The notes under the pieces: model-generated
Database searches by the model: none
The model's input: the letters and a program-made list of their open reading frames with translations, nothing else
What the model was told of the DNA's origin: nothing
Shown: in pieces, positions 21,999 through 63,226 of the stretch
Layout of the letters: each line of letters begins with the position of its first letter
How positions within the stretch are numbered: the first letter of the stretch is position 1
Program-made: the position numbers and the translations under genes
Origin: Patescibacteria group bacterium
GTDB taxonomy: Bacteria; Patescibacteriota; Minisyncoccia; UBA6257; HR35
Assembly (NCBI GenBank): GCA_030549845.1
Contig: JAUQQN010000002.1
Coordinates: 53,307 to 117,306 of the forward strand
DNA length: 64,000 nucleotides
Reading direction: 5' to 3'

Positions 21999-22073
21999 TG
22001 GTGGGCGGGCCGGGCCTTGAACCCGGATCTCTCTCACTTTTAGAGAGCGCCTTCCCCTTTAAGCCACCCGCCC
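21999..22073 (-). tRNA. tRNA-like gene with an atypical anticodon loop; isotype unresolved
   Basis: Perfect 7-bp GC acceptor stem (GGGCGGG/CCCGCCC), D-arm with GG, T-arm CCGGG-TTCAAGG-CCCGG, discriminator A and a genomically encoded CCA. The anticodon stem CTCTC/GAGAG encloses the loop TAAAAGT, with A at position 33 and an AAA/AAG-type anticodon. Confidence 0.55.
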
Positions 22074-24090: not shown

Positions 24091-24879
24091 TCAGGTATGG
24101 GTTTTCAATAAATATAAACCTCCATAGATTCCTGATTTTTCCTGAAGTTTGCTTTTAAAAATTTTTGTTTTAAAGGGTAAAGTTTTTAAATTACTAAAAT
24201 TTACTTTTAACTCTTCAAAGTCTAAGCTTTTGATTAATGAACCACCAATAATAATTGCCTCTACTGACCAAAAAATAGCAACATTAATTAAAAACCCAGC
24301 GAAAATTTTATTAATATAGGACCAAAATTTTTTATCTTTAATTTCTTCTGGCTTTTTACCAGTAATTTTTTCTATTGATTTTCCTCCTATTAATTTTTCA
24401 ACTTCTATAAAATTAGAATTTAATAAAAACAAACTATGGCCTGGTTCAAAGCCGAAAAAATTCTCTTCAACTTTTTTATTTACAATTTTTACCCCACCCA
24501 CTCCACTACTTAGAGTAACATAACCCAAAATATTAAATCTTTTACCAATGCCATAAACAGCCTCTCCTAAACCTGCAAGTTCTGCATCATTTTTTAAAAT
24601 AACATCGCAATTAAATAAATTTTTAAAATCTTTAACAATATTTTTATTATTAAAATTAGGAAGGTTAGGGGCTTTAATTATTTTTTCATTTCTTATCATC
24701 CCAGCAAAACCAATAACTATTCTATTGAATCTTGTTTCTTTCAAGTTGTTTTTAAGTACTTGCAAGAAATCATTATAATTCTTAGGAGTTTCGATAATAA
24801 AAAATTTATCAATTTTATTTAAGTTTTTACTAATACCTATTTTAGTCGTAGTGGCTCCTATATCTAATAAAAGGTGCAT
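24091..24879 (-). CDS. ROK/BadF-type sugar kinase (glucokinase-like ASKHA ATPase)
   Basis: N-terminal LLDIGATTTKIGI phosphate-1 motif. GFAGMIRNEKIIKAPNLPNF. C-terminal IIGGSLIKS...GIYGGLYLL. Confidence 0.55.
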   Translation of the reverse strand: MHLLLDIGATTTKIGISKNLNKIDKFFIIETPKNYNDFLQVLKNNLKETRFNRIVIGFAGMIRNEKIIKAPNLPNFNNKNIVKDFKNLFNCDVILKNDAELAGLGEAVYGIGKRFNILGYVTLSSGVGGVKIVNKKVEENFFGFEPGHSLFLLNSNFIEVEKLIGGKSIEKITGKKPEEIKDKKFWSYINKIFAGFLINVAIFWSVEAIIIGGSLIKSLDFEELKVNFSNLKTLPFKTKIFKSKLQEKSGIYGGLYLLKTHT

Positions 24880-26381
24880 TATTCAATTTTAGTTTTTTCC
24901 TTCGATCTTGCAAATAAATAATACCACATTGCTATATTTAACAAAATCAAAATTATAACTAAAATCCACGGTGTTGAAATAATACTAAATAATCCTCCAG
25001 CAAAAGCAGCAAGTGGAGCAAATATATTTTCCTTTTTACTTACTTCAATAGTAACTGGAAAATCTTTTTTGGTCCCATTTATACCTGCTGTAATTATCCC
25101 ATAATATTCACCTTCTTCTGCATCACAAGGTACATCAATAGTCCAATTAAATGAATTTATATCATTAGGTAAAACTTCTATAACTCTTGCTTTTGGCTTA
25201 AACCATTTTTTAATCTCCCCACTTATTGTAAAAGATACTTTTCTTTTTTTGCTATTGTTATTAATAATAGTAATATTTATATTATCTTTCTTGCATATAT
25301 ATGTCTTCAAATAATCATCTATAGATATATCCAAATAAGAATTTTGCATTTCTTTTGTAACCAAAGTAGCGGCCGGAGTTGTTGGCTTAGTTACTGGAAC
25401 TCTGACAGTTTGGGTTATTGTTTTTGTGATTGTCTTTGTAATAAATTGCGTTCTTCCTACACTAAGCACAAGTTCTTTTGAAGAAGTAGCACCCTTATCA
25501 TCTACAACTGTAAGCTTTATATTATAAGTCCCTGAACTAAGGGCCCTTGAAAAAGATGGATTTCTTGAAACAATTTCATTATTTATTGACCATTCATAAA
25601 GAATTATTCTACCATCAGGATCATAAGAGCCAGCTGAAGAGAAGGTTACAATTGTTCCTGGTTTAATTAAGGTTGGAGAATAAGTTATATTAGCAATAGG
25701 TTTTTGATTTTGAGATGTTATAGTTGTCTGTTGAATTTCACGGGAAATTACATTTACACTACAATTTGTGGCTCTTGAAATACCATCTGAATAAACTGTT
25801 AAATAAACATAATAAGTACCTGGAGTATAAAACGTTTTTTGGCAAATAGATGAATTTCCAACACAATCTCCAGACCAGGAATATGAATAATATCCTGTTC
25901 CCCCAGATACGTTAGAATAGAAAGTAACTAAACTTCCTACATAAGCTGGGTTGGGTGCTGAATAGCAAGAAACACTTAAATCAGATTGCTGGGTTCCACA
26001 AGTAGTTGTAAAAGATCTAATTTCCCCATAATTTATTCCGGCGGAGTTTTTTGCTACTGCTCTATAATAGTATGTTGTACAAGGATTTAAATTAAATATT
26101 GTATAACAAAATCTATAAGGAGTATAAGTAACATTCAGGGTTTGAACGGGCGTAGTATTAGTTAAAGCAGTGGTTCTTCCCCATTCAAACCAAACCTGAA
26201 TATTTTGATCCCCTCCTGTATCAGTTATTTCACCAACTAAAGTAGCTTGAGTATCAGTATAGGTTGATCTGCTTGGACAAGCTTGCGCATTTACATCGTA
26301 TAATCCTAAAAACAAAACAAACAATGCAACTAACATTATTTTTAATTTGCTTTTTATAAATCTTTCTTTTTTTATTTGCAT
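24879..26381 (-). CDS. Secreted, C-terminally membrane-anchored protein with an FN3-like N-terminal domain and a PKD-like domain
   Basis: Signal peptide. Domain CPS...ATLVGEITDTGGDQNIQVWFEWG...PYRFC...CTTYYYRAVAKNSAGINYGEIRSFTT. PKD-like segment YDPDGRIILYEWSINN...YNIKLTVVDDKGATSS. C-terminal TM helix. Confidence 0.6.
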   Translation of the reverse strand: MQIKKERFIKSKLKIMLVALFVLFLGLYDVNAQACPSRSTYTDTQATLVGEITDTGGDQNIQVWFEWGRTTALTNTTPVQTLNVTYTPYRFCYTIFNLNPCTTYYYRAVAKNSAGINYGEIRSFTTTCGTQQSDLSVSCYSAPNPAYVGSLVTFYSNVSGGTGYYSYSWSGDCVGNSSICQKTFYTPGTYYVYLTVYSDGISRATNCSVNVISREIQQTTITSQNQKPIANITYSPTLIKPGTIVTFSSAGSYDPDGRIILYEWSINNEIVSRNPSFSRALSSGTYNIKLTVVDDKGATSSKELVLSVGRTQFITKTITKTITQTVRVPVTKPTTPAATLVTKEMQNSYLDISIDDYLKTYICKKDNINITIINNNSKKRKVSFTISGEIKKWFKPKARVIEVLPNDINSFNWTIDVPCDAEEGEYYGIITAGINGTKKDFPVTIEVSKKENIFAPLAAFAGGLFSIISTPWILVIILILLNIAMWYYLFARSKEKTKIE

Positions 26382-26746
26382 TTTGTCTTTATTGATCTAA
26401 TTTCCCCATAATTTATTCCGGCGGAGTTTTTTGCTACTGCTCTATAATAGTATGTTGTACATTTTTTTAATTTATTCACATTTATACAATATATTCCTGG
26501 TTTGCTTAATTTTATTGATTTTGTCTTAAACATTAAACTTGATGAAGAAGATCCGTACTCAAACCAACCTTCTACATATTTGTCATTTCCTAAACTATCA
26601 ACTTTTCCTACAAAAATTATATTATTTTTATTAGCAATAGTTCTCTGGGGACATTTTATTGAAATAGTATTCACCGCAAAAACCCTAGAAGCTAAAAATG
26701 TAAAGAATATTAAAATACTTATTAAAAGGATAAATAATTTCTTCAT
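26372..26746 (-). CDS. Secreted FN3-like paralog (124 aa)
   Basis: Signal peptide plus the same domain, ending ...CTTYYYRAVAKNSAGINYGEIRSIKTKCK. Shares a 68-bp identical DNA segment with the upstream paralog. Confidence 0.55.
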   Translation of the reverse strand: MKKLFILLISILIFFTFLASRVFAVNTISIKCPQRTIANKNNIIFVGKVDSLGNDKYVEGWFEYGSSSSSLMFKTKSIKLSKPGIYCINVNKLKKCTTYYYRAVAKNSAGINYGEIRSIKTKCK

Positions 26747-26796: not shown

Positions 26797-27489
26797 TTAT
26801 AATGTTTGAACTGCAGGTAAAGTAATAACAGCAGGCGGATTAGCTCTTACATCCACAGTTACAGAATCAGAAACAGATTGATTGTATCCAGAACAAGTGA
26901 TAGTAAATGTATATCTTCCAGAGCTTAAATTAGAAATTACTTGTGAACCAGAAACTGATTTACTACCACTCCAAGCTGAAACCCATGGACTACTTTGAGC
27001 TGAGCAGGATGAAACATCTCTAGATGTCCAAGAAAGTGTAACACTTTCTCCAGGTAATATTGTTATTGTACCATCAGTACCATTAACCTTTAAATCAACT
27101 TCAGGTCTTACACACAATGTTGTAAATGACATTATATCACCATAAGAAGTACCACCAGAGTTTTGGGCTACAGCTCTATAGTAATATGTTGAGCATGGGG
27201 TTAAATTACTAATAGAAGAACAAAATCTATAAGGAACATTATCAACTCTTAAATATTGCTTTGATGTACTTCTTCCTAGAGAACTGGTTTCCCCCCACTC
27301 AAACCATGCAGTTATATTTTTATCTCCTCCTGTATCATTAATTTGACCTACTAATGTAGCTGCAGTGTGTGTGAATGTTGTATTAGAAGGACAAGAAGAT
27401 TGAGCAAAAGATTTGAGATTCAAACTAAAACCTAAACCTAATAGAGCAATAAGCAAAATACCTAAAGATATTACTTTTCCTCTATTCAT
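26797..27489 (-). CDS. Secreted FN3-like paralog (230 aa)
   Basis: Signal peptide plus CPSNTTFTHTAATLVGQINDTGGDKNITAWFEWGETSSL...CSTYYYRAVAQNSGGTSYGDIMSFTT, followed by a second beta-rich domain. Confidence 0.55.
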   Translation of the reverse strand: MNRGKVISLGILLIALLGLGFSLNLKSFAQSSCPSNTTFTHTAATLVGQINDTGGDKNITAWFEWGETSSLGRSTSKQYLRVDNVPYRFCSSISNLTPCSTYYYRAVAQNSGGTSYGDIMSFTTLCVRPEVDLKVNGTDGTITILPGESVTLSWTSRDVSSCSAQSSPWVSAWSGSKSVSGSQVISNLSSGRYTFTITCSGYNQSVSDSVTVDVRANPPAVITLPAVQTL

Positions 27490-27660: not shown

Positions 27661-28281
27661 TTAATGAGGTTTTTTAAAGCACACTAAGTTATAATTTATA
27701 GATTTTGATTCTTTTGAAAGGTATTCTTCAATTTCTGTAATCAAAGTGCCTGTTACAAGAATAGTTTTATTTTTTTTACTAAATTGAATTTTTTCCTCTC
27801 TTAAAACTTGCTCAAGATAATCATTACTTGGAAATATCCTAGCTTCTCCTCCTGGTTTTAAAACTCTTAAAATTTCCATAACAGATCGTCTTATGTTTTC
27901 TTTTGACATTTCTTCATCTTCGGAGGTTAAATATAAAGGCATTCCATATAATGATAACACTAAGTCAAATGAGTTATCTTGAAATGGTAACTGTAAAAAT
28001 GAAGCAGCAATTAATCCTAATTTATCAGAGTTATATAAATAGGGTTGAGCTTCTTTGATTTCTTTTCTTCTTTCCTCTTCCTTTAAAGTAATATCTAATC
28101 CTACAACCTCTGCTTTATCTTCTATTTTTTGAAGAAGCTCTCTTGGAAATCTTTGCAATCTTCCTGATCCCAAGTCTAATATTTTTTTACCTTTTAGTTC
28201 TTCTATATTTAAATCTAGTAGCTCTAAATAATTTTTGAGAGACCGGTCTGTTATCATTATTTTTCTTTCGATTTTTTTCAT
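27661..28281 (-). CDS. Class I SAM-dependent methyltransferase
   Basis: Motif I KILDLGSG. Motif post-II FDLVLSLYG. RVLKPGGEARIF. Confidence 0.75.
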   Translation of the reverse strand: MKKIERKIMITDRSLKNYLELLDLNIEELKGKKILDLGSGRLQRFPRELLQKIEDKAEVVGLDITLKEEERRKEIKEAQPYLYNSDKLGLIAASFLQLPFQDNSFDLVLSLYGMPLYLTSEDEEMSKENIRRSVMEILRVLKPGGEARIFPSNDYLEQVLREEKIQFSKKNKTILVTGTLITEIEEYLSKESKSINYNLVCFKKPH

Positions 28282-28285
28282 AAAC

Positions 28286-29074
28286 TTAAACTAAAAACTT
28301 AATTAGTTTGTTACTCAATAGGGGTAAATATTTCCTTCCTATATTCTCCCCTATTTTAATTTTTTCTTGTGCGTTTAGAAAATCATACCATTTAACTTCA
28401 TATGGCAGATTTACATTTATAACAAAATCCGCGTTTTTAACATTAAATTTAGCAAGGTTATATTCTAATATTTTTAAAGAATAATCTGCTACTTCTAAAA
28501 TATTGTAGTGACCCTTGAGAGAAAAATTATAATTACTTAAATTTACAGCAATCACAAAATCCGCTCCCATTTTTCTTACTACATCAACAGGAACAGGCAA
28601 TGAAATTCCACCATCTACTAGCATTTTATTATTTATTTTCACTGGAGCAAAAATAAAAGGAATTGAAATACTTGCTCTAATAGCAGTAGATAATTTTCCT
28701 TTATCTATTACATAATAATCTCCAGAAGATAAATCAGTTGCAATTGCTCTAAAGGGAATTAAGCAATTTTCTATTTTTTTATCACCTAAATAATACTCTA
28801 AAAAATTTTTTATCTTTTCCCCACTTATTAAGCCAGATTTAAAATCAGGATCAAAAAATAAAGAAAATAAATCTTTCCAATCTGTATCAATAGCTATTTC
28901 TTCAATTTTATCTATAGAAAATCCTGCACAATAAAAACCTCCTATTAATGCGCCTATGCTTGATCCTGCAATAAAATTAATAGGAATTTTATTTTCTATT
29001 AAAACTTTTAGAATACCTATATGAATTAACCCCCTAGCTCCCCCAGCACCTAATGCTAATCCTATTTTTATCAT
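28286..29074 (-). CDS. Patatin-like phospholipase
   Basis: Oxyanion GxGxxG (LGAGGARG), nucleophile elbow AGSSIG, and catalytic-Asp motif DGG. Confidence 0.85.
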   Translation of the reverse strand: MIKIGLALGAGGARGLIHIGILKVLIENKIPINFIAGSSIGALIGGFYCAGFSIDKIEEIAIDTDWKDLFSLFFDPDFKSGLISGEKIKNFLEYYLGDKKIENCLIPFRAIATDLSSGDYYVIDKGKLSTAIRASISIPFIFAPVKINNKMLVDGGISLPVPVDVVRKMGADFVIAVNLSNYNFSLKGHYNILEVADYSLKILEYNLAKFNVKNADFVINVNLPYEVKWYDFLNAQEKIKIGENIGRKYLPLLSNKLIKFLV

Positions 29075-29093: not shown

Positions 29094-29801
29094 CTATTGA
29101 GATTGTTTTTGAGATTGTTGTTGAATTTGTTGTTTAATTTGCTCAATAATCTGAGAAAGGTCTACACCAAAAGATTCTTTTATCTTGGTTTTTAAATTTT
29201 CTAATGTTTTCTCAATATTCTCGAATTTCCTCTCCATAATTGCTTGAGTTTTTCTTTCTAAAACAACAATTTTTTTAGCTAAAAATTGAGAACCGTTCCA
29301 AATGCCAAAAATTTTAACTCTTTCTCCAATTTTTATATCAGTAGTATTTATAAGTTGCGGATTAACTTGAGCCAATAATCTTAAATTTATACTTGATATT
29401 ACCTTTGTATCAGTTCCTATATGCCAATCAATCTTAAAACCTTGTGAGTTAATAGTTAATATATTATTCTCATTTCTATCTACAATACCTTGCTGAACCG
29501 TAAAACCAACTGGGTTTAAAAAGAAGAACTCAGCTTTTATTCTATTTGTTATTTTTTCTCTTACAAAATCATCGAGGTCTTTAAACTCCCCAAGTTGCTG
29601 TTTGTTTAAAGGAGGAGTTTTAATTTCAATTTTATTAGGATTTATCTTAACAAATGGAGCTTTTTCTTTAAATAATTCAATTTTAGGAGCTGGAACTATT
29701 ACTGGAGTAGAAGTAACAACAGGATTTATCTCTTCAGCTTTTGCAATTAAACCAAACAAAAAAAGAAAACCTACTATCCCTCCAATTAAAATTTTTCTCA
29801 T
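29094..29801 (-). CDS. Secreted hypothetical protein with a Q-rich C-terminus
   Basis: Signal peptide and a coiled/Q-rich tail (QQIQQQSQKQSQ); no catalytic motif. Confidence 0.4.
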   Translation of the reverse strand: MRKILIGGIVGFLFLFGLIAKAEEINPVVTSTPVIVPAPKIELFKEKAPFVKINPNKIEIKTPPLNKQQLGEFKDLDDFVREKITNRIKAEFFFLNPVGFTVQQGIVDRNENNILTINSQGFKIDWHIGTDTKVISSINLRLLAQVNPQLINTTDIKIGERVKIFGIWNGSQFLAKKIVVLERKTQAIMERKFENIEKTLENLKTKIKESFGVDLSQIIEQIKQQIQQQSQKQSQ

Positions 29802-30423
29802 TACTTAAAAATTATATTTAATTCGACTTAACAAGTTAATAACTATTTAATTACTTTGATTTTTTAGGTCTCTTTTTAGAACCACAACTTTTTGCCATTT
29901 TTTGTCTACGATATTTTAAAAATTTAAATCCGACCTTTAAAAATTATAACAAAATTTCAGAAATAAAATAAAAAACAAATTGTATAATAGTTTCTTAGCA
30001 TTTATTATGTTTAAGCAAAAAATAAAATTTTAACAAATTCAGGAATTATTGAAATTTCTCATGCAGAAATTTAAAAAAGAATCATGCAAGGAATTTATAA
30101 AAAGGAGCTAAGCTCAGGATTAAAAAATTATTAATTCCTTCTAAAAACAGTTCTGTTAAAAATCACTATAAAAACTTGCTTCAAAATTTTTATAGCAAAG
30201 AGGCATCAAGATTAAAAAATTATTTATTTCATATAAATTTTTAATGTGACTTATTTGCTTTATGCGTAATTACTATTTGCTCTTATTCTTTTGGTGCTTG
30301 CACATCTTATCTACTCCAAAATTACATCATAAAATTTTCCCAAAAACAATAATTGTAAGACGCAGTTTGATAAAAAAAATTGTAATAGTAAAATTTTTAA
30401 GTAATACTTATGGAACTCGAAAA

Positions 30424-32172
30424 ATGTTTGTAAAAAGAAAATCTAATTTTAAATTTATTATAATTACTCTTCTCATCGTTATTATTGAAATAGTTCTAGG
30501 ATATTATTTTAGGCCAATTTCAGAAAAAATAAGCGGCAGTAAAAATCGAATAAGAATATCTGCTGGAATCGTACCTCATCATTTATTGGCAAAAAATATT
30601 ATAGAAAATTTTTTCCGGTACATTTCTTCAAAAGATGAACCCGAGGTGATTGTTTTGTTAAGTCCTGACCATTTTAAAGTCGGGAGTATTGTGGGAGATT
30701 TTTTTATAACACTAGAACCACAAACTTTAGAATTCTATGGGATGAAAATTGATAGGCCACTTATTAAAAATCTTTATTTTGAAAATAATATTTTTTTTAG
30801 CAATTCAAGCATTAAACTCGACCATGGAATTATAAATTTAATGCCTTTCATAAAAAAATATTTTCCTAACAGTAAAGTTGTGCCGTTTATTATACCTTCT
30901 AGTATTTCTAAAAAAGCAGTAGACCAATTTGTAATCTCTCTAAATCGCTTTGCACCTAAAAAAACAATAGTAATTGCTAGTGTTGATTTTTCTCATTATC
31001 TTCCAGTTCCAGCGGCTAGATTCCATGATGTTAAAAGTATTCGTACTATAATTAATTTCGAAAAAGAAAATTTTGAAAAATTAGATGTGGACTCTTGGCA
31101 AGCTCTTTATATTGCAAGAGCTTTTGCTCATAAAATGAAGATGGAATCACCAAAACTAATCGCTTACGCAAATTCTCATGATATTACCAAAAATTCAATA
31201 AGCAAGGAAGTAACTTCGTATTTCAGTGTTGTCTTTGAAAAAGAAACTCAAAATAAAGAAAGAGCAAACAGATTTGAAGGGAAAACAATTTTATTTGTTG
31301 GAAACATTATTCTAGATAAAAGCATAAAGCATATGACACAAAAAAATAGTGTCTTTTATCCATTCGAAAAAATCAAGCAATTTCTAAAAGGAATTGATCT
31401 TTTAGTAGGAAACCTAGAGGGCGTGATTGTTGAAAACCCAGAAAAATTTGATAACCATTCATTAAAGTATGTTCTTCCTCCAGAAATAGTTAAGGCATTT
31501 TCCCATACGAATTTTAATTTATTTTCATTGTCGAATAAACACGCATTTGATATGGGAGAAACAGGCTTGGAACAAACCAAAAAATTTTTAACCAAAGCAA
31601 ATATCAACTTTGTTGGTCATCCGAATGAATGTAATAAAAATTCAAAGTTTGAAAAAAATGAAATAATAATTCTATCTTTTAAAAAAACTTCCTTCTCCAA
31701 TTGTTCTGATAAAGAAATTATAAATCATATAAAAACCGTAAGAGCTCTTAATATAAAAAAATTCATAATAGTTCTTTTACACTGGGATGAAGAATATCAA
31801 TCAAAAAATTTTCTGCTACAACAAAAATTAGCCCATCAAATAATTGATAGTGGAGCAGATTTGATAATCAGTTTTGGGATTCCAATTGTTCAAAAAATAG
31901 AAGAATATAAAAGGAAACTAATTTTCTATTCTTTGGGTAATTTTATTTTTGGTCAACATTTTTCAAAGGAAACTTCACAAACCTTAGCAATAGGTTTAGA
32001 AATTTATTCACAAGAAGTTATTTTTAGACTATTTCCAATTAAAAATCAACTAGGTCAGCCATTTTTGATGGATAGAAAAGAAGCAAATTTATTTCTAGAA
32101 AAATTAGCCGAAAAAAGTTCTAACTCTTTGTCTGACAAAATTAAAAGCGGTATAATAGTAATTAAGAGATGA
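30424..32172 (+). CDS. Fusion protein: N-terminal Memo1-like domain plus C-terminal CapA-like (PGA-synthesis type) metallophosphatase domain
   Basis: N-terminal half: ISAGIVPHHLL...VIVLLSPDHF...DHGIINLMP...IASVDFSHY (Memo-like His cluster). C-terminal half: LSNKHAFDMG (GNHEFD-type), LLHWDEEYQ (HWGxEY-type), GADLIISFGIP, YSLGNF (CapA signature). Single N-terminal TM helix. Start taken at the internal Met of the track ORF. Confidence 0.55.
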   Translation: MFVKRKSNFKFIIITLLIVIIEIVLGYYFRPISEKISGSKNRIRISAGIVPHHLLAKNIIENFFRYISSKDEPEVIVLLSPDHFKVGSIVGDFFITLEPQTLEFYGMKIDRPLIKNLYFENNIFFSNSSIKLDHGIINLMPFIKKYFPNSKVVPFIIPSSISKKAVDQFVISLNRFAPKKTIVIASVDFSHYLPVPAARFHDVKSIRTIINFEKENFEKLDVDSWQALYIARAFAHKMKMESPKLIAYANSHDITKNSISKEVTSYFSVVFEKETQNKERANRFEGKTILFVGNIILDKSIKHMTQKNSVFYPFEKIKQFLKGIDLLVGNLEGVIVENPEKFDNHSLKYVLPPEIVKAFSHTNFNLFSLSNKHAFDMGETGLEQTKKFLTKANINFVGHPNECNKNSKFEKNEIIILSFKKTSFSNCSDKEIINHIKTVRALNIKKFIIVLLHWDEEYQSKNFLLQQKLAHQIIDSGADLIISFGIPIVQKIEEYKRKLIFYSLGNFIFGQHFSKETSQTLAIGLEIYSQEVIFRLFPIKNQLGQPFLMDRKEANLFLEKLAEKSSNSLSDKIKSGIIVIKR

Positions 32173-34742
32173 AAAATTTTCCCCAGCAAATTAATCCATC
32201 CAAAACTATATTATCAATTATTTTAGTAGGATTAGTTATTTTAGGAAGTATTTATGTTAGCATTTTTTATTTTAAAAAAAGATCCCCAAAGCCTCCATTA
32301 ACAAAAATATCACCCATTCAATCCTCTCCTGTTTTTAATGAAGTTTTATTTACAAAAAGATTGATCAAACCCGAGGATATTGCTTTAGAAAAAGTTCAGA
32401 TTATTCCCCAAATCCCTAAATATAATTTACCTCTTAAGACTAAAGACATTGCCAATTATCCAAAATTCTCTCAAAAAATTCGTTTAAGTTCTCGAGCTTT
32501 ATCTCTTTTAGAAAAAAATGGATTTGTAGCAATTACTACGCCAAAAGAGATTGCTAATAAAGAAAGTGTAACTTCAATAGGAGAAAATAGCAAAATAAGC
32601 TATCCAAAAGACGATTTTGCAGCTTTTTATATAGCTTTACAAACATTAGATTTACCGATTTTTATTACTACTGATTCACTTTTACATTTCTACCACATCC
32701 TTTTTAATACTACTTTGATGAAATTAGAAAAAGATCTTTTTTATTCAGATCTTTGGCTAATAAGCAAGGAATTTTTTGATGACGCTCTTTTCCAATATAA
32801 CAAAACCTCTGGAGATTTAAAGGAAGCAGCTAAAAGAAATGTAGCCTATTTTTCAGTCGCTCTAGAATTGCTAAAGCCAAAGCCGCATCAAGTTGCAACA
32901 AAAGAAAATATCCAAAAAGAAATCGAATGCTATCTGCCTTCAGAAACTTGTGAAGAAATTATTTCAAATCAATTAAAAGAAGGAAAACTTTTTAGCTTAT
33001 TTACGCCTGAAGAATTTAAAAAATATTCATTTCAACCACCAGATTTTGTAAAAGATCTGGTTCAAAAGGAAATTCAACTAATTGAAAATCATAAAGGTTG
33101 GGAGAATTCTCCGATTTTCATATACAAAGAAGATTACTCTCAGTACATTCCAAGGGGCCATTATAGCAGATCTGAAAAACTTAAAAATTATTTCAAAGCA
33201 ATGATGTGGTATGGTAGAATGACAACTTTGATTAAAGGATCTCCTAATTTACCAAAGGGGGTATCTAAATGTTCAGAGTATGGAATTATTTCTGAATATG
33301 ATGCTAAAATTCAGACTCTCCAAGCAAGTTTAATCGCTAGTAAATTTTTAAAAAGCCATGATATCCAGAAAAGATGGGAGAGAATCTATAAAATTACTTC
33401 TTTTTTTGTTGGATTTTCTGATGATTTGGGCCCATATGAATATAGTATTGTGTTAAAAAGTTTATTTAAGGGGGAAATTAAACTAGAAAAATTGGAAGAA
33501 AAATATTCAGAAATTAAAAACATTCTCCTTAATCTTCCTTATAATCCAAAAATTTATGGAGGGTTAGGGGCTTGCCAGCTATCTATGCCTTGTCCACCTC
33601 TTTCAGACCAAGAAATTCAAGAATTAAAACTCCAAGAAAAAAAACTTATAGAAGCAACAAAAGGGCTTAGATTAATGGGACAAAGATTCACTATTGATTC
33701 TTGGTTCTTTTCGGAACTTGTTTCTCCTTATTCTGGGATATACATTGGTAATAAAACCACTCGTCCATTCACTCTTGTAAAAACTCAAATTCCTGGTTGC
33801 CAAGAAGGAAGAGAAATAAGAGGCTTTCCTAGGGGGTTAGATATTATGGCCTTACTAGGATCAAAAAGAGCTAAAGAAATTTTGAAAGAATTAGGAGATA
33901 CGGCTTATTCAGATTATGAAAAGAAATTTTCTGAATTAAAGAAAGAATTAGATACTTTACCTCAATATAAATGGTTCGAGAATCTTTATTGGGGATGGCT
34001 TTATGTTTTGAAATCTTTATTAGGTGAATTTGGCGAAGGGTATCAAACCTTTATGCAAACAAAGGCCTGGCAAGATAAGGAACTAAATACTGCTTTGGCT
34101 TCTTGGGCAGAGCTAAGGCATGATACAATTTTGTATACAAAACAAAGTTATACCGGTGCTGAAATGGGTTCTGTAGAAGAACCACCAATCGTTGGTTATG
34201 TTGAGCCAATACCTGAATTTTATGCTCGACTTTTAACTTTAACAAAAATAACAAGTAAGGGCTTGAAAGAATTAATACCAAAAGAAAATTTAGAAAAATT
34301 AAAAATAGAAGAAGTCTTAACGGAATTTTCAAAAATTTTAACGAAATTATTAGAAATCTCAAAAAAAGAATTAGAAAATAAACCATTAAATCAGGAAGAA
34401 TATGATTTCATCCAATATTTTGGAGTAAATTTGGAAAACCTTGTTCGATTGGTTGCACAAGCTGAACCAGATCCTGATATTTTTAAAACAACTTTAATCG
34501 CTGATGTTCACACTGAAAGCAATACTAAAAAAGTTTTGGAAGAAGGAGTAGGGTATATTAAAACTTTAGTAGTAGCTTATAAACTTCCAGACGGTCGAAT
34601 TTTAATTGGAGTTGGGCCTATTTTTAGTTATTATGAATTTAAGCAACCAATGGAAAATAGATTAACTAATGAAACTTGGAGGTTAATGTTGCAAGAAAAT
34701 CCTCCTTCTTCACCAGAATGGACGAGAAGCTTTTCAGAATAA
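32169..34742 (+). CDS. Large (857 aa) membrane-anchored hypothetical protein, possibly DUF3160-like
   Basis: ATGA start/stop overlap with the upstream fusion gene. N-terminal TM. Conserved-looking segments IPRGHYSRSEKLKNYFKAMMWYGR and ELRHDTILYTKQSY. No enzymatic motif recognised. Confidence 0.4.
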   Translation: MKNFPQQINPSKTILSIILVGLVILGSIYVSIFYFKKRSPKPPLTKISPIQSSPVFNEVLFTKRLIKPEDIALEKVQIIPQIPKYNLPLKTKDIANYPKFSQKIRLSSRALSLLEKNGFVAITTPKEIANKESVTSIGENSKISYPKDDFAAFYIALQTLDLPIFITTDSLLHFYHILFNTTLMKLEKDLFYSDLWLISKEFFDDALFQYNKTSGDLKEAAKRNVAYFSVALELLKPKPHQVATKENIQKEIECYLPSETCEEIISNQLKEGKLFSLFTPEEFKKYSFQPPDFVKDLVQKEIQLIENHKGWENSPIFIYKEDYSQYIPRGHYSRSEKLKNYFKAMMWYGRMTTLIKGSPNLPKGVSKCSEYGIISEYDAKIQTLQASLIASKFLKSHDIQKRWERIYKITSFFVGFSDDLGPYEYSIVLKSLFKGEIKLEKLEEKYSEIKNILLNLPYNPKIYGGLGACQLSMPCPPLSDQEIQELKLQEKKLIEATKGLRLMGQRFTIDSWFFSELVSPYSGIYIGNKTTRPFTLVKTQIPGCQEGREIRGFPRGLDIMALLGSKRAKEILKELGDTAYSDYEKKFSELKKELDTLPQYKWFENLYWGWLYVLKSLLGEFGEGYQTFMQTKAWQDKELNTALASWAELRHDTILYTKQSYTGAEMGSVEEPPIVGYVEPIPEFYARLLTLTKITSKGLKELIPKENLEKLKIEEVLTEFSKILTKLLEISKKELENKPLNQEEYDFIQYFGVNLENLVRLVAQAEPDPDIFKTTLIADVHTESNTKKVLEEGVGYIKTLVVAYKLPDGRILIGVGPIFSYYEFKQPMENRLTNETWRLMLQENPPSSPEWTRSFSE

Positions 34743-35110
34743 ATGATAAATAATATTTACGGTTGAAATATTTTAAAAAGCAGACCCAGAAGTTTTAACA
34801 TGTTCATTTGGGATAAATATAAACTTAATTTTTAAAGATTATAAAAGCATAAAAAATTTTAAATTTTGATATGATTAATTCCAGTTTTTATTTCAAAACT
34901 AAGTTTTAAAATATGTAAATATCTTTCGCTCTTATATAAAAATAGAATCTTTATGGCTAAGTAAATATTAAAAAAAATCGCCATTTAATTTCTTCATAGA
35001 GATTATTAATATTTGGAAGCTTAAAGAACTATAGAAAAGTGCAAAAAGCTAGGTATCCTCTATAAACATAAACTTGAAGGATTGATAGATTTAGAGACCT
35101 ATAAAGCTAA

Positions 35111-35464
35111 AAAACTGAAATAGAAAGGGAGATTAGCTCTTTACAGGATTCACTAAAGAGATTGTTTGAAACAGATATTGATTACTTAGATTTAGGTGTT
35201 AATCTTTTAGAACTATGTAAAAAAGCAAGGTTTTTATATGAAAATGCAACTATTGAAGAAAAACGAGAATTAATAAATTTAGCTTTTCAAAAAATTTTGA
35301 TAAAAGATAAAACATTTATTTTCGAATATTCTCCTTGGTTCGCAATTTTACACAAACACTCCGGATTAATTAAAGAAATTTGCGAACTCGAAAAAAGCAA
35401 GAATTTAAAAGAAGAAAATGAAATTTTAGAGAAAGTTTATCCTAAAATGCTCTACCTATATTAA
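35111..35464 (+). pseudogene. C-terminal fragment of a large serine recombinase (integrase); N-terminal catalytic domains missing
   Basis: The in-frame stretch after the stop at 35108 reads KTEIEREISSLQDSLKRLFETDIDYLDLGVNLLELCKKARFLYENATIEEKRELINLAFQKILIKDKTFIFEY, which matches the coiled-coil plus ...FDNSTFDEKR.L...I.KI.L....I.I.W tail of large serine recombinases. No upstream resolvase or recombinase domain ORF exists in 34743-35110. A TTG start was used by the ORF track. Confidence 0.5.
35366..35407 (+). repeat. Direct repeat copy A (42 bp, 1 mismatch vs 39713-39754)
   Basis: ttaattaaagaaatttgcgaactcgaaaaaagcaagaattta inside the recombinase fragment. A second shorter repeat pair lies at 35659-35684 and 39651-39677. 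Confidence 0.8.
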
Positions 35465-35823: not shown

Positions 35824-38301
35824 ATGGTTATAAAACAAGGCAAATCTGAACCCAATTTAAAATATATATTAATCATAGTTGTTCTGAGTATTATTGTCGG
35901 GGGAATCGTTATCTGGAACTATTTGATTGTATTGCGGGAAAAAGAACTACAAATAAAAAAACCACAAGAAAAAGAGATTATTAAGTTGGAGGGTAGATTA
36001 TACCGGAAAAAAATCACTTTTGATCTGAAAAATACTGAAACGCTTAAAAATTTTCAAATTTCTTTAAAATTAGATACCTTATCTTTAATAAGGGAAGGAA
36101 AGTTATCTCTTGATTGCGGAAATATTAGGTTTACAGATTCTGATAAGGAAACAGAGATTCCTTATTGGATAAAAGGTAAGTGTGGAGAGAATAATACTGA
36201 AATCTGGTTAAGAGTGCCAGAAATCTTACCTAATTCAAAAAAAACCATTTATGTTTATTACGGCAACGAGGCTAAACCTTCAACTTCAAATTTTGATGAA
36301 GTCTTCAAAACCAATAATTTTTTGTTGGGTTGGTACTATTTTAGTGAGCTAGATAAGCTAAAAGTGACAGATCTTTCTATGAGTAAAAACAACGGAAAAA
36401 TTTTTGGATTAGATTATGAGTTGGTACCATCAAAGATGACATTAGATTGCGAAAATGAGAATGGATGTTTTGTGTTTTTAGATAATTGGGGCAAAGAATG
36501 GGAGTGGACTGATATTCCCGATGCTTATTTTGAAATTCCTTCAGAAAAATTAAATTTTAATAAATTACAAGGATCTATTGAGATGTGGGTTAAACCGAAA
36601 AATGCAAGATCAGGAAAATATCAGAGATTGGTAGTTGATAGTAATTGGGAGATTGAGTTAGGAATTAATCCTAACGGTGATTTATATTTCTATCCAGCAC
36701 AAGCGCCAAAAGATAATTATAACATGATAAATAACCCGTTAAAAAACGATGAGTGGAATCATATAATAGTTACTTGGAATTTTGAAAATAAAGAGGTCAT
36801 TTTCTATATCAATGGAGAAAAAAAGAAAAATGACGTTGAGAATGTTCCAAGATATTGGAAAGAAATGGCAAAAATAGGAAATTTGCAAATTGGAGGAACT
36901 AATTTAGGAATTGAATCTGCATTTGTAGGGTATATAGATGGAGTGAGAATTTATAATAAAGCTTTAGATAGTAAAGAGGCAAAAATGGCTTATAAATATA
37001 ACAGAAGAAACATAAGATATCCAACAATTTCTTTTGGGGCAGAAGAGTTGATTTCGGTAGGGAAATTAAAGGATACGGTTTTTGACTCTTCAATTGTAGA
37101 AAATATCCCTATGACTGATAAAATTAAGATTGGTACTTGTTATGCCACACCACTTCACATAGGGTATAGCTATTATCCTAGCGAGGGAAAATACATCAAT
37201 CCTTCAACCAAAGAAGCTTTCTTTTTGATTCATAGATTAAAAGATGAAGATCTTCCTATTTTTGGTGTACCAAGTCACTTTTTCCCATATGAAGGAGCAT
37301 TTGTTAAATTTGAAGATGCCTTTTTATTATCTTACATAGGATTAGAAATCAATAACCCCAAATTAATTAAAGATTTAAAAATTGAATTTAAGAAAGTAAA
37401 GAGTTATGAACCTGGAATAATTGAGCGTTGGGGGGAACTAATTCCTACTGCCTATGCGTGTGGTCCTTACTATAGTTATAAAACAGTTGGAGATTCGGAA
37501 TTTTCTTTTATAGGAGAAAAAAATGGAATATATTGGTATAAATTGAAAAATCCAATTTTCGTTGACCAAGAAGTTACAATGATGCAACTTTATTACAAAC
37601 CTACTGGCGAAGAAGGAATGCTTTCTATTAGGGTTAACGATATGGTTTTTATTGATAGAAATAAAAAGCTTGTTCGCCCTACTTTTTCTAAAGATTCAAA
37701 AAAACCAATTGAGACAGAAGGAGCGGATTTTTTCTCAGAAATGTATGTTCTTCCTTACTGCCCTCCTGGTGAGAAATATTTTGAGAAATATTTAGCATAT
37801 TTTGCTAAAGAAGAAAAAGGATTTATCATTTTTAAACAAAACCTCGATACACAAAAATTAGAGTTATCTTTTGAAAACCGCGGAAAAGACCAGATTATTA
37901 TTGACCATCAATCTATTTGGAATATTGAAACTCAATTAATAAAATGGAGGGTTAAAGATATCAAAATTCGAGATTTAAATGATAACATTATTTATAAGCT
38001 CTCAATGGATGAAATCAAAAATCAGATATTTGGTAAGAAAATAGACCCAGGTGGAGCAATAAAAATACCTCTTATTTCTCTTAAAGATTTGCAAAAAAAT
38101 ACATTTTATCACATTACTATTGGTACGGGTGAAGAATCGAAACTTGAAGAAGTAACAAATCAAAAAAGAATTATCAAGTGGGTTCTCGGTGATTCACCTT
38201 ACTATTATCCTCGATATCGTTTTAATAATGATCTTTATTTGTACCGTTTAAATGTGGCTCAAGATGGCTCTATCAGTTTCGAAGAAGTAAGGTCGAAATA
38301 A
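35824..38301 (+). CDS. Membrane-anchored DUF2341 plus LamG (concanavalin A-like lectin/glucanase) domain protein
   Basis: N-terminal TM. DUF2341-like LDCGNIRFTDSDKETEIPYWIKG...EIWLRVPEILPNSKKTIYVYYGN. LamG-like GSIEMWVKPKNARSGKYQRLVVDSNWEIELGINPNGDLYFY...WNHIIVTWNF...GYIDGVRIYNKAL. Confidence 0.65.
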   Translation: MVIKQGKSEPNLKYILIIVVLSIIVGGIVIWNYLIVLREKELQIKKPQEKEIIKLEGRLYRKKITFDLKNTETLKNFQISLKLDTLSLIREGKLSLDCGNIRFTDSDKETEIPYWIKGKCGENNTEIWLRVPEILPNSKKTIYVYYGNEAKPSTSNFDEVFKTNNFLLGWYYFSELDKLKVTDLSMSKNNGKIFGLDYELVPSKMTLDCENENGCFVFLDNWGKEWEWTDIPDAYFEIPSEKLNFNKLQGSIEMWVKPKNARSGKYQRLVVDSNWEIELGINPNGDLYFYPAQAPKDNYNMINNPLKNDEWNHIIVTWNFENKEVIFYINGEKKKNDVENVPRYWKEMAKIGNLQIGGTNLGIESAFVGYIDGVRIYNKALDSKEAKMAYKYNRRNIRYPTISFGAEELISVGKLKDTVFDSSIVENIPMTDKIKIGTCYATPLHIGYSYYPSEGKYINPSTKEAFFLIHRLKDEDLPIFGVPSHFFPYEGAFVKFEDAFLLSYIGLEINNPKLIKDLKIEFKKVKSYEPGIIERWGELIPTAYACGPYYSYKTVGDSEFSFIGEKNGIYWYKLKNPIFVDQEVTMMQLYYKPTGEEGMLSIRVNDMVFIDRNKKLVRPTFSKDSKKPIETEGADFFSEMYVLPYCPPGEKYFEKYLAYFAKEEKGFIIFKQNLDTQKLELSFENRGKDQIIIDHQSIWNIETQLIKWRVKDIKIRDLNDNIIYKLSMDEIKNQIFGKKIDPGGAIKIPLISLKDLQKNTFYHITIGTGEESKLEEVTNQKRIIKWVLGDSPYYYPRYRFNNDLYLYRLNVAQDGSISFEEVRSK

Positions 38302-38320: not shown

Positions 38321-39454
38321 GTGATAATTAGATTAAAGAAAACATTAACCTTATTAATAATTAGTGGAGTTTTCTTTTTAGGTAGTTTATTTATTATTGA
38401 ACTGAAACTTTTAAATCGAGATAAATTCGCACACAACTATTCTTCTTTCATTCAAAACAAAACTATATTACAAGAGAAAAAGAAAATAACTCTTAGAGAA
38501 AAACTTGGACAAAATTTAGTAGTTGGAATTCCAGGCCCTACGCTCGATGAAAGAACAAAAGAAATTTTGCATTACATTAAACCAGCTGGAATTGTGTTAT
38601 ATCGTCGGAATTATAAATCCTATTCTCAACTTAAAGATTTAATTTCCCAGTTACAAAAAATTTCAAATGAAGATACTGGGCTTTTTTATTTCATTATGTT
38701 AGATGAAGAACCAGACGGCGCAATGCGTCTCGGTTTACTTAAAAATGTCTTTCCTCTAGAAATACCTGACTGGAAAACTATTGAAAATGATATTAGAATT
38801 TTGGCAGATATAGGAATTAATGTTGAGCTAGCGCCTATCGCAGATTTTCCATTTAATAACGATGCATTTGTTAAAAGACGAGTTCCAGTAAAGAGTGTCG
38901 AAGACTTAATAGCATTTAATAGAACATTTATCAGCTTACTTAAAGAATATAGAATTTCAGCTACTTTAAAACATTTTCCCGGTATGGGAATTTTTATCGA
39001 AGATCCTCACGAAAAGATCCCTCATTCAAATATCCAACAAGAAGTTCTTAATAAATCGTTAAAGATTTTTAAAGATGGGATTGAGAATGGGGCTGATTTT
39101 GTTATGACAGGTCACGCAGTATATGAAAATATAGACCCTAATAACCCGGCAACATTTTCTTCTAAAATAGTAAGAGACCTTTTAATACATCAACTCGGTT
39201 TTCAAGGAATTATTATTACCGATGATCTTTCAGATATGCCCCTGGCTATAAAAGGAATAAATCTTGCAGAGGCTGGTATTAGAGCGCTTAAGGCAGGTCA
39301 TCATTTGATAATGTATTCACACAAATTAGAAAAAACAAAAGATATTTTTGATAAAATATATCGCCGCATAGAAAACGATTTTGAATTGCAATCAATTATT
39401 GAGAGTAATTATCAGAAAATTATTGAATTTAAAAAATCTATCTTCTCATATTAA
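38321..39454 (+). CDS. Glycoside hydrolase family 3 N-terminal domain protein (NagZ-like beta-N-acetylhexosaminidase); GTG start
   Basis: KHFPGMG (KHFPGHG motif), MLDEEPDGAMRLG, ELAPIADFP, VMTGHAVY. N-terminal TM anchor. Confidence 0.75.
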   Translation: MIIRLKKTLTLLIISGVFFLGSLFIIELKLLNRDKFAHNYSSFIQNKTILQEKKKITLREKLGQNLVVGIPGPTLDERTKEILHYIKPAGIVLYRRNYKSYSQLKDLISQLQKISNEDTGLFYFIMLDEEPDGAMRLGLLKNVFPLEIPDWKTIENDIRILADIGINVELAPIADFPFNNDAFVKRRVPVKSVEDLIAFNRTFISLLKEYRISATLKHFPGMGIFIEDPHEKIPHSNIQQEVLNKSLKIFKDGIENGADFVMTGHAVYENIDPNNPATFSSKIVRDLLIHQLGFQGIIITDDLSDMPLAIKGINLAEAGIRALKAGHHLIMYSHKLEKTKDIFDKIYRRIENDFELQSIIESNYQKIIEFKKSIFSY

Positions 39455-39929: not shown

Positions 39930-40703
39930 TTAAATATGAATGCCAAAGTAAATCAAAATATATTTCAATGAGACATAGAAAAACAAAAGACCAAACAAGA
40001 ATTTCAAGATATTTGGTTTGAATTTTGCTACGAGCTTTGCGCCATAAATTGCGCCGATTAAAGCGCCGATACCCAAAGCAATTGCTACTGGAATATCAAC
40101 AACACCTTGAAAAAGTTTAAAGAAAGCACCCACCAAGGCCATCCAGACAAAAGCAGCCATTGAAGTACCAATTGCCAGCTTTACTGGTGCTTTCAAAAAA
40201 TAGATGTAAGAAGGGACTAAAGCATAACCACCTCCAAGACCGATAATGCCAGTTAAAATGCCAATAGCTGAACCTAAAATTGTTTTTACTAGCGGCTTAC
40301 CTGGAATTTCCACACCTTGCACAGTTTGGCTTTTAGTAAATAATCCTTCATAAAGCATTCGGACCGAAACGATGATAAAAGCAATACCAATAATCAAGTC
40401 AATTAAATTACCGTAATGTTTAATATAACCAAAAACAATTGAACCAATAATTACACCCAAAATTCCTGCATAACCAGTTAAAAGTGCTGTTTCTTTATCA
40501 ACATTTTTCATTTTAAAATGCTGATAAGCACCCGATGCGGCAGTAAAAACTACTGCCGTTAAAGTTGTACCAATAGCAACTGCTGGATCAAAATGAAAAA
40601 CAAAACGAATAACTGGCATTATTAAAGCACAACCTCCAGTACCTAAAAGCCCGCCGATAACTCCAGCCAAGAAACCGGTGATAAGATAAATTAAGTAAAT
40701 CAT
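39930..40703 (-). CDS. TSUP (TauE/SafE) family anion exporter
   Basis: 257 aa, eight TM helices, internal twofold repeat with GxGGG-like motifs (GGLLGTGG / IGLGGGY). Confidence 0.8.
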   Translation of the reverse strand: MIYLIYLITGFLAGVIGGLLGTGGCALIMPVIRFVFHFDPAVAIGTTLTAVVFTAASGAYQHFKMKNVDKETALLTGYAGILGVIIGSIVFGYIKHYGNLIDLIIGIAFIIVSVRMLYEGLFTKSQTVQGVEIPGKPLVKTILGSAIGILTGIIGLGGGYALVPSYIYFLKAPVKLAIGTSMAAFVWMALVGAFFKLFQGVVDIPVAIALGIGALIGAIYGAKLVAKFKPNILKFLFGLLFFYVSLKYILIYFGIHI

Positions 40704-63154: not shown

Positions 63155-63226
63155 TGCCTGGGGAGGGAATCGAACCCCCGACGCCGGGCTCTTCAGGCCC
63201 GCGCTCTACCACTGAGCTACCCAGGC
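63155..63226 (-). tRNA. tRNA-Phe (anticodon GAA)
   Basis: 72 nt. Acceptor GCCTGGG/CCCAGGC with A73. Anticodon loop CTGAAGA. T-loop TTCGATT. Confidence 0.8.

Follow-up and report, generated by a model that had tools for sequence, protein, structure and literature searches.

The two genes considered here lie in a 64,000-nucleotide stretch of DNA from a Patescibacteria group bacterium (GenBank assembly GCA_030549845.1, contig JAUQQN010000002.1, positions 53,307 to 117,306), which is referred to below as the window. Gene 1 encodes a membrane-anchored fusion of a Memo-like domain to a CapA-family (PGA_cap) domain, and gene 2, which overlaps its end, encodes a DUF3160 protein (Table 1). The pair appears to be the Memo-fused variant, with an inactivated CapA centre, of a deeply conserved and apparently unstudied DUF3160-CapA gene pair, all parts of which belong to known families. 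That the two are a functionally linked, exported pair is very probable. We propose that they form an exported, co-transcribed two-gene module acting on a carboxylate-bearing peptide or an acidic polymer, a reading to which we assign a probability of about 0.5; it is offered as a lead for functional discovery, not as a demonstrated new mechanism.

The association of the two genes was surveyed at 160 loci collected with a profile of the gene 1 family (80 from species-representative genomes and 80 from metagenome contigs) and searched with the DUF3160 protein. DUF3160 is adjacent at 13 of the 14 loci with close Memo::CapA orthologs (those with a CapA domain at least 38% identical), at 6 of the 42 with distant fusions (in 19 of the 36 without it, the flanks are cut short) and beside 9 of the 103 proteins that have PGA_cap without a Memo domain. 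Both orders of the DUF3160 and CapA genes occur among these loci. In exact-protein look-ups, the gene following each of P0028, P0090, P0076 and P0032 encodes DUF3160, and a fusion gene lies directly upstream of each of the DUF3160 orthologs P0130, P0136 and P0193. When flanking open reading frames (ORFs) were clustered over 33 loci, DUF3160 and the CapA family were the sole recurrent families.

A tblastn search of PLSDB with DUF3160 returned five records (plasmids or chromids), from Deinococcus sp. KNUC1210, D. radiodurans, D. ficus, Bacteroides finegoldii and Candidatus Thiodictyon syntrophicum. In all five an annotated 'CapA family protein' is encoded directly downstream, with an overlap of 4 base pairs (bp) in three records, 1 bp in one and 28 bp in one. 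We define the pair, which is not a curated system, as a DUF3160 gene and a PGA_cap gene that are neighbours in the same orientation and either overlap or lie no more than about 30 nucleotides apart; the two genes of the window, with their 4-bp overlap, fall within this definition, as do 13 of the 14 close loci and all five PLSDB records, and an overlap of 4 bp is also present at loci L087, L175, L176, L171, L173 and L174. The pairing was seen in Deinococcota, Bacteroidota, Gammaproteobacteria, Firmicutes (Marinisporobacter, L073), Atribacterota, Caldisericota and Patescibacteria. It outlasts both inversion of gene order and full turnover of the neighbouring genes across phyla, and is therefore strong evidence of a functional link. 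As judged by gene order, the conserved unit is the DUF3160 gene with a CapA-family gene and not the Memo::CapA fusion. The preliminary description of this region, prepared from the sequence without database searches, would have been refuted if the two genes were never adjacent in other genomes; the survey and the PLSDB records place them together in many. Its statement that CapA normally occurs with CapB and CapC has to be revised, as DUF3160 is a second widespread partner set of CapA and forms the conserved unit here.

The positions of both ORFs and the translational coupling through an ATGA overlap, as given in the preliminary description, are present in the sequence. The database gene call for gene 1 begins at 30262, 54 codons upstream of the ATG at 30424, and would give a protein of 636 amino acids (aa). 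The start at 30424 matches the point where 23 aligned homologs begin; the segment between the two starts (30262-30423) is hydrophobic and has no counterpart in the 23 aligned family members. Judged from base composition and family matches, ORFs of 582 and 857 aa in sequence of 28% guanine-plus-cytosine (GC) content, with the Pfam scores given below, are far beyond chance expectation. Consensus promoter-like sites and terminators around the pair do not exceed the counts in shuffled sequence; because the promoter-like sites are no commoner than in shuffles, no promoter was assigned.

Both domain calls for gene 1 are confirmed by profile scores and by structure modelling. Memo (PF01875) matches aa 51-259 with 47.2 bits (gathering cut-off 27, E = 2e-12), which supplies the hidden Markov model support for the N-terminal half on which the Memo assignment had been made to depend. 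PGA_cap (PF09587) matches aa 288-511 with 149 bits (cut-off 27, E = 2e-43) over profile positions 1-255 of 255. Among the NCBIfam models, TIGR04336 (AmmeMemoSam_B) scores 68.1 bits against a cut-off of 26, and NF038314 (the MslH equivalog) scores 38.7 bits, far under its cut-off of 700. An AlphaFold model built from the family alignment (predicted local distance difference test score [pLDDT] 88, predicted template modelling score [pTM] 0.86) has a Memo/LigB-type fold in the N-terminal half; in structure comparison, the C-terminal half comes closest to the epimerase MslH. The N-terminal transmembrane (TM) anchor was also called correctly: it is evident in the sequence, is modelled as a helix over residues 9-29, and corresponds to a hydrophobic segment common to all 24 aligned homologs. 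All of the motif strings quoted in the preliminary description occur, VPHH, SPDHF, DHG, DFSHY, NKHAFD, HWDEEY and YSLGNF in gene 1 and IPRGHY and ELRHDTILY in gene 2.

The suggestion that gene 2 might belong to DUF3160 is borne out by a full-length Pfam match (PF11369, 662 bits against a gathering cut-off of 25, E = 1e-198, profile positions 3-632 of 632). The gene 2 search gave 4371 homologs among the candidates scored, and the DUF3160 profile run against 1.84 billion cluster representatives (50% identity) gave 5,793 matches at E <= 0.001, of which 4,250 were at E <= 1e-10. Gene 2 is the better conserved partner, 60-72% identical to the listed orthologs (72% to the nearest) compared with 47-61% for gene 1, and it keeps every family-invariant DUF3160 residue; His, Asp, Glu, Arg and Tyr are frequent among these. 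The family, whose large proteins are mostly helical, is without known fold or function; we presume it to be an enzyme because so many residues of these types are invariant. The one paper in the searched library that mentions DUF3160, an archaeal survey, lists it as a secreted enzyme in a table and does not mention CapA there (PMC4158269). The window copy is a full-length, high-scoring member, membrane-anchored or secreted like the archaeal ones (PMC4158269), and differs from the family in nothing of kind.

Export is indicated for the pair as a whole. In Deinococcus and Bacteroides both partners have signal-peptide or lipoprotein-type N-termini, and nine long DUF3160 proteins have type IX secretion system tails (four), a dockerin (one), a PD40 propeller (one) or no identifiable extension domain (three). 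Each of the two window proteins has one N-terminal hydrophobic helix. The gene 1 anchor is predicted to be of the signal-anchor type, with an N-in/C-out topology, in keeping with its charge distribution, that would place the bulk of the protein outside. Taken with the homologs, these signals indicate that the module is located outside the cytoplasm.

The preliminary description regarded the CapA metallophosphoesterase domain as complete. Its fold is complete; three positions of the catalytic and metal site are lost. In MslH the site comprises the catalytic dyads His88/Asp91 and His295/Asp11 and the Ca ligands Glu44, Asn87, His259 and His261. Residue-level alignment to MslH (8ith) mapped Glu44, Asn87, His88, Asp91 and His292 to His295, and Asp11, which lies outside that alignment, was placed by motif position. 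Where the family has the motifs GD, NLE, NNHxxD, HWG and GxHxH, the window copy has GN, NLE, NKHAFD, HWD and SFGIP, so that the set of motifs is not intact. NKHAFD and HWDEEY, which had been taken as hallmarks of the domain, are indeed present, as degenerate forms of the consensus NNHTxD and HWGxEY. P487 occupies the position of MslH His295, and SFGIP occurs in the window copy alone among 120 homologs. Kept are H373 and D376 (MslH His88 and Asp91) and, within NLE, E332 (MslH Glu44). The MslH variants Asp11A, Asn87A and His295N are inactive (PMC10406935), and because the equivalents of three residues essential in MslH are lost, the CapA centre of the window copy is probably dead. The pattern is that of a pseudo-enzyme, a domain retained for a structural or partnering role. 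As a probable natural case of inactivation, the window copy offers a helpful contrast and suggests that the CapA domain has a structural role too.

Two other accounts of the lost motifs were examined and rejected. A compensated frameshift behind the missing GxHxH is ruled out, as the other frames hold stops and no motif. Accelerated decay of the CapA domain was considered from the ratio of PGA_cap to DUF3160 identity, which is 0.77 in pairs with the window and 0.84 +/- 0.13 in other pairs; the former is slightly low, and the difference is not significant.

These losses, confined to the window copy among the 120 homologs, could also mean that gene 1 is heading towards a pseudogene in this genome and that the pair is no longer a unit. 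Locus L085 indicates that the module can be lost: at L085/L086 (8696-8794) Memo::CapA ends in frame with the last 33 residues of DUF3160 (...EWIKTFSE), a tail that is the scar of an in-frame deletion that took nearly all of the partner gene. Gene 1 of the window, however, is an intact ORF without a frameshift and with its ATGA coupling, its Memo-site residues and, except in the CapA centre, every position that is invariant in the family are conserved, its CapA-domain divergence is within the family range, and its DUF3160 partner is 72% identical to the nearest ortholog. We regard decay as improbable.

The Memo-like centre presents a different picture. H52, H83 and D223 are invariant in the Memo::CapA family. 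When aligned by MAFFT with cytoplasmic Memo-AMMECR1 proteins as a bridge, they fall opposite H49, H81 and C244 of MEMO1. The numbering of the MEMO1 sequence used agreed with that of PMC11081632 at six of the six positions checked, and the same paper gives H49, H81 and C244 as the metal ligands of MEMO1. The site in gene 1 is therefore not of the MEMO1 His-His-Cys type, as its third ligand is Asp (D223). In this respect it resembles the extradiol dioxygenases, which have a 2-His-1-carboxylate triad with a carboxylate (Glu) as the third ligand. As far as these residues show, the Memo-like metal site is intact in the window copy.

As NCBI naming implies, gene 1 could instead be a cytoplasmic AmmeMemoRadiSam component working with AMMECR1 and a radical S-adenosylmethionine (SAM) enzyme, with DUF3160 an incidental neighbour. 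The TIGR04336 match (68 bits, cut-off 26) is in keeping with this, as are a few loci. A Memo-AMMECR1 fusion gene of the cytoplasmic type stands beside the pair at L087 (1367-2950) and near it at L110 (7373-8818), and AMMECR1 is found near the pair at L087/L088 and L110 only; it also occurs near PGA_cap genes without a Memo domain (L038, L060). On the related contigs L175 (1354-2256) and L176 (1324-2256), a gene for an activase-like radical SAM protein of 300-310 aa overlaps the start of the fusion gene, and the DUF3160 proteins of these loci (P0130, P0136) are among the closest relatives of that in the window. This radical SAM protein, however, scores 30 bits against a TIGR04337 cut-off of 220, and classical partners occur at about 4 of about 40 loci; almost every close ortholog, in contrast, has DUF3160 next to it. 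In the window itself, AMMECR1 has no tblastn match over the 64 kb and no ORF of at least 200 aa contains CxxxCxxC, so that the usual Memo partners are missing near the pair, as had been noted from the sequence. In contrast to MEMO1 and AmmeMemoRadiSam protein B, gene 1 has an invariant Asp in place of Cys244, and its TM anchor, like its exported homologs, points outside the cytoplasm. Membership in the AmmeMemoRadiSam system is quite improbable. The sporadic links to AMMECR1 and radical SAM genes may be traces of the origin of the Memo domain or may reflect a functional tie in some cases; gene 1 does not become part of AmmeMemoRadiSam through them.

The Memo::CapA fusion is not confined to the window. 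A search of a large protein collection with gene 1 gave 352 significant matches among the candidates scored. Among the 120 matches listed, all 120 have PGA_cap (PF09587) and 115 have a precomputed Memo (PF01875) annotation; the other five are shorter (534-551 aa) with PGA_cap alone annotated, yet they cover 96-100% of the query. A subgroup of about 960 aa has an added C-terminal beta-propeller. Named relatives come from Parcubacteria/Patescibacteria, Caldatribacteriota/Atribacterota and Caldisericum, and some carry the names 'AmmeMemoRadiSam system protein B' (NCBI) or 'poly-gamma-glutamate synthesis protein' (JGI). The view that this is an undescribed architecture cannot be maintained, with more than 350 database proteins having it and some already named by NCBI and JGI; judged by domain annotation it is common and annotated, not unique. 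The literature search found no published study of a Memo::CapA fusion.

Comparison of the loci indicates that, on domain content, the core comprises two genes to which individual lineages have added different parts, Memo among them. Beside DUF3160 we found CapA alone (L073, L157, Deinococcus and Bacteroides), CapA with a C-terminal FG-GAP-like domain (L075, L080, L147, L154 and Thiodictyon, L174), Memo::CapA (the window copy and its clade) and Memo::CapA::beta-propeller (the P0032 type). The FG-GAP-like part, a third recurrent component of the module, has about 150 aa, contains the motifs D-x-TGDG-x-PE and W-x-W-x-G-x-GF and matches FG-GAP_3 below threshold; L075, L080, L147 and L154, where it is fused to CapA, are CPR loci. 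It can also form a small exported protein of its own, encoded beside the pair in D. radiodurans, D. ficus, B. finegoldii and Deinococcus sp. KNUC1210 (unannotated in the last); tblastn found no match for it in the 64-kb window. Two further genes recur at some loci. A DUF498 (Mth938-like) gene of 120 aa lies one or two genes away at L083 (6620-6982), L087 (7368-7706) and L175 (231-593), with a remnant at L176, and has no counterpart found in the window. Directly upstream of the fusion, a protein of some 830 aa without a Pfam match is encoded at L003 (3031-5478), L005 (5407-7893), L092, L094 and L095, the first two being Atribacterota metagenome-assembled genomes and the other three unclassified metagenome contigs.

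According to the proposed reading, the co-transcribed and usually translationally coupled pair would work outside the cytoplasmic membrane. Its core would be DUF3160 with a calcineurin-fold domain of the CapA/PgsA/MslH family, to which a Memo-like domain would have been added in the lineage of the window, and the two proteins may interact physically. We infer a carboxylate-bearing substrate because the sole studied members of the CapA family have substrates of the peptide type that carry a free alpha-carboxylate; candidates would be cell-wall peptides or polyglutamate-like material. MslH is a RiPP (ribosomally synthesised and post-translationally modified peptide) epimerase (PMC8179263) that carries out a Ca-assisted acid/base epimerisation of the C-terminal residue of a peptide (PMC10406935). 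Removal of pgsA changes the D/L ratio of poly-gamma-glutamate (PGA) in B. subtilis from 75/25 to 5/95 (PMC6029982), and CapA has been proposed as a PGA epimerase (PMC8179263); this control of D/L content by PgsA fits epimerase chemistry. In pairs with an intact centre, the CapA domain may thus abstract the C-alpha proton of the substrate, which DUF3160 would bind or cleave. This specific chemistry is a tentative suggestion, to which we give clearly less weight than to the module itself. In the genome of the window, the CapA domain would serve as a scaffold or partner only, and the Memo-like centre and DUF3160 would be the active parts.

The strongest alternative is a surface phosphoesterase, in which the CapA domain would cleave phosphodi- or monoesters of an exogenous substrate, a polymer or lipid (such as teichoic acid, nucleic acid or phospholipid head groups), with DUF3160 acting on the same substrate, a form of scavenging that would suit a reduced genome. 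The calcineurin fold could equally mean a phosphoesterase, which weighs against the epimerase-based proposal. No CapA-family member is known to hydrolyse phosphoesters, however, and the functional data on MslH and PgsA concern epimerisation (PMC10406935, PMC6029982). MslH keeps a single metal, the window copy lacks the metal ligands altogether, and the association with a patatin-like phospholipase gene is weak (4 of 33 loci). We consider a phosphoesterase unlikely, though the remaining alternatives (PGA capsule synthesis, AmmeMemoRadiSam, RiPP maturation and gene decay) are less likely still.

Maturation of a RiPP-like peptide would combine an MslH-type epimerase, sometimes a radical SAM enzyme, and DUF3160 as a processing or export factor. 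The closest solved structure is indeed that of MslH, a RiPP epimerase (PMC8179263), and at L175 and L176 translation of the fusion is coupled to that of the radical SAM gene. Nothing like a lasso cyclase is present in the conserved neighbourhood (no search for a precursor peptide or RiPP recognition element was made), and export signals are found on both proteins in several phyla. MslH itself (the lasso-peptide C-terminal Trp epimerase, PDB 8GQ9) differs from gene 1, which lacks the equivalents of Asp11, Asn87 and His295, scores 39 bits against the 700 required by NF038314, and by contrast is membrane-anchored, Memo-fused, DUF3160-paired and outside any lasso-peptide cluster. We therefore hold a RiPP pathway to be very improbable.

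Least probable of all, to the point of being hardly tenable, is that gene 1 is the CapA/PgsA subunit of a PGA capsule synthetase, as implied by the JGI name 'poly-gamma-glutamate synthesis protein' on several homologs. Gene 1 shares the PGA_cap family (Pfam E = 2e-43) with CapA/PgsA of PgsBCA(E), together with a PgsA-like N-terminal membrane anchor and a catalytic domain predicted to lie outside. It differs in its DUF3160 partner, its extra Memo domain and its degenerate site, with catalytic residues lost, and in the absence of PgsB and PgsC nearby. The statement of the preliminary description that CapB and CapC are not near the pair holds: neither CapB/PgsB nor CapC/PgsC has a Pfam match among ORFs of at least 120 aa between 22.4 and 41.5 kb (except 26372-26746), and neither appears in the ortholog neighbourhoods listed. 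CapA/PgsA-family proteins are routinely annotated as PGA capsule synthesis proteins and Memo::CapA fusions as AmmeMemoRadiSam components; both labels look wrong here.

Several further observations weigh against the exported, substrate-modifying module that we prefer. Loss of the CapA centre beside a fully conserved DUF3160 would require a CapA paralog elsewhere if catalysis were central, and no second CapA gene is present in the 64-kb window. The radical SAM gene at L175/L176 and the Memo-AMMECR1 gene at L087/L110 encode cytoplasmic-type partners that fit an exported module poorly. The gene 2 anchor has more Lys/Arg after the helix than before it and is ambiguous under the positive-inside rule; because of this charge distribution, its topology was taken from the homologs. 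Comparison of DUF3160 with solved structures gave no match to any fold, the AlphaFold 2 model of gene 2 is of moderate quality overall (pLDDT 67.7) and poor over residues 505-675, including the conserved ELRHD segment, and the enzyme label for the family derives solely from its conservation pattern. Most of the distant Memo::CapA fusions have no DUF3160 nearby, a Rosetta-stone search found no DUF3160-CapA fusion among the nine DUF3160 proteins with a long C-terminus, and no studied member of the pair was found in the literature.

A wider hypothesis would extend the proposal beyond the window to an undescribed, ancient extracellular system of at least seven bacterial phyla, in which a CapA-type C-alpha epimerase and a new-fold DUF3160 depolymerase would remodel or break down mixed D/L carboxylate-bearing polymers (PGA, peptidoglycan peptides), with Memo, of the non-haem-iron type, recruited in Patescibacteria and Atribacterota. 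We regard it as speculative and distinctly unlikely in this full form. If true, a Memo-like domain would for the first time have a role outside the cytoplasm, and the CapA family would have one that does not depend on PGA. The coupled, cross-phylum pairing in any case offers a way into three poorly understood families, DUF3160, CapA and bacterial Memo, and culturable hosts of the pair include Deinococcus radiodurans and Bacteroides finegoldii.

Table 1. Features of the gene pair and its surroundings (positions in the window unless a locus is named)
Feature	Position	Strand	Remarks
Gene 1, Memo-like::PGA_cap (CapA-family) fusion, membrane-anchored	30424-32172	+	582 aa
N-terminal TM helix of gene 1, about aa 10-29	30451-30510	+	Lys/Arg-rich stretch before it; from sequence, AlphaFold 2 helix 9-29
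Memo-like domain of gene 1, aa 45-272	30556-31239	+	Putative 2-His-1-carboxylate site H52, H83, D223
PGA_cap / CapA-family calcineurin-fold domain, aa 286-582	31279-32169	+	Degenerate active site in window copy
N294 in place of the Asp of GD (MslH Asp11 equivalent)	31303-31305	+	D in 109/120 homologs; N in window copy alone
K372 in place of the Asn of NNH (metal ligand MslH Asn87)	31537-31539	+	NNH in 113/120 homologs; NKH in window copy alone
SFGIP, aa 483-487, in place of GxHxH (MslH His292 to His295)	31870-31884	+	GxHxH-type motif in 106/120 homologs
ATGA stop/start overlap, gene 1 to gene 2	32169-32172	+	From sequence
Gene 2, DUF3160 protein with N-terminal hydrophobic anchor (about aa 13-35)	32169-34742	+	857 aa
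Intergenic region between divergent upstream gene and gene 1	29802-30423	.	622 bp, AT-rich; presumed promoter region of the pair
ROK-family protein	24091-24879	-	
Surface protein with PKD domain	24879-26381	-	
Secreted protein	26797-27489	-	Weak Ig-like/PKD-type matches below cut-off
Methyltransferase	27661-28281	-	
Patatin-like phospholipase	28286-29074	-	
Secreted protein without family match	29094-29801	-	
LamG/DUF2341 surface protein	35824-38301	+	825 aa
Glycoside hydrolase family 3 (GH3) glycosidase	38321-39454	+	
TauE-like exporter	39930-40703	-	
Small FG-GAP-like genes by other pairs	L171 8770-9279; L173 6723-7265; L172 4883-5332; L170 ~8830-9400		L170 gene unannotated

The surroundings of the pair, where surface or secreted proteins are predicted, resemble a cell-surface gene neighbourhood more than a mobile element. 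The preliminary description had placed the two genes inside a putative mobile block; this placement is not supported by the data, given a flat GC profile (24-34%, uniformly AT-rich, with no compositional break around the pair), neighbours that are surface proteins and enzymes, the absence of a mobility gene, and the absence of any PADLOC or PHROGs match for either protein. A defence or phage origin of the pair was rejected on the last of these grounds. A 1.08-kb non-coding stretch after gene 2 contains a frameshifted ORF fragment at about 34990-35464 on the + strand (...LEGLIDLETYKAKKLK / TEIEREISSLQDSL...EEKRELINLAFQKILIKDK...), which may resemble the C-terminal region of a large serine recombinase; Pfam gave no support, and a serine-recombinase remnant downstream of gene 2 was not confirmed. 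The loci with a patatin-like phospholipase gene within a few kb of the pair are the window, L005 (4278-5327), L093 and L094. Elsewhere in the window, ARAGORN predicts a transfer RNA (tRNA) for Phe with the anticodon AAA at 21999-22073 (- strand), clustered with tRNA-Ala and tRNA-Pro; a normal tRNA-Phe (GAA) is located at 63155-63226, and AAA is an unusual anticodon for tRNA-Phe.

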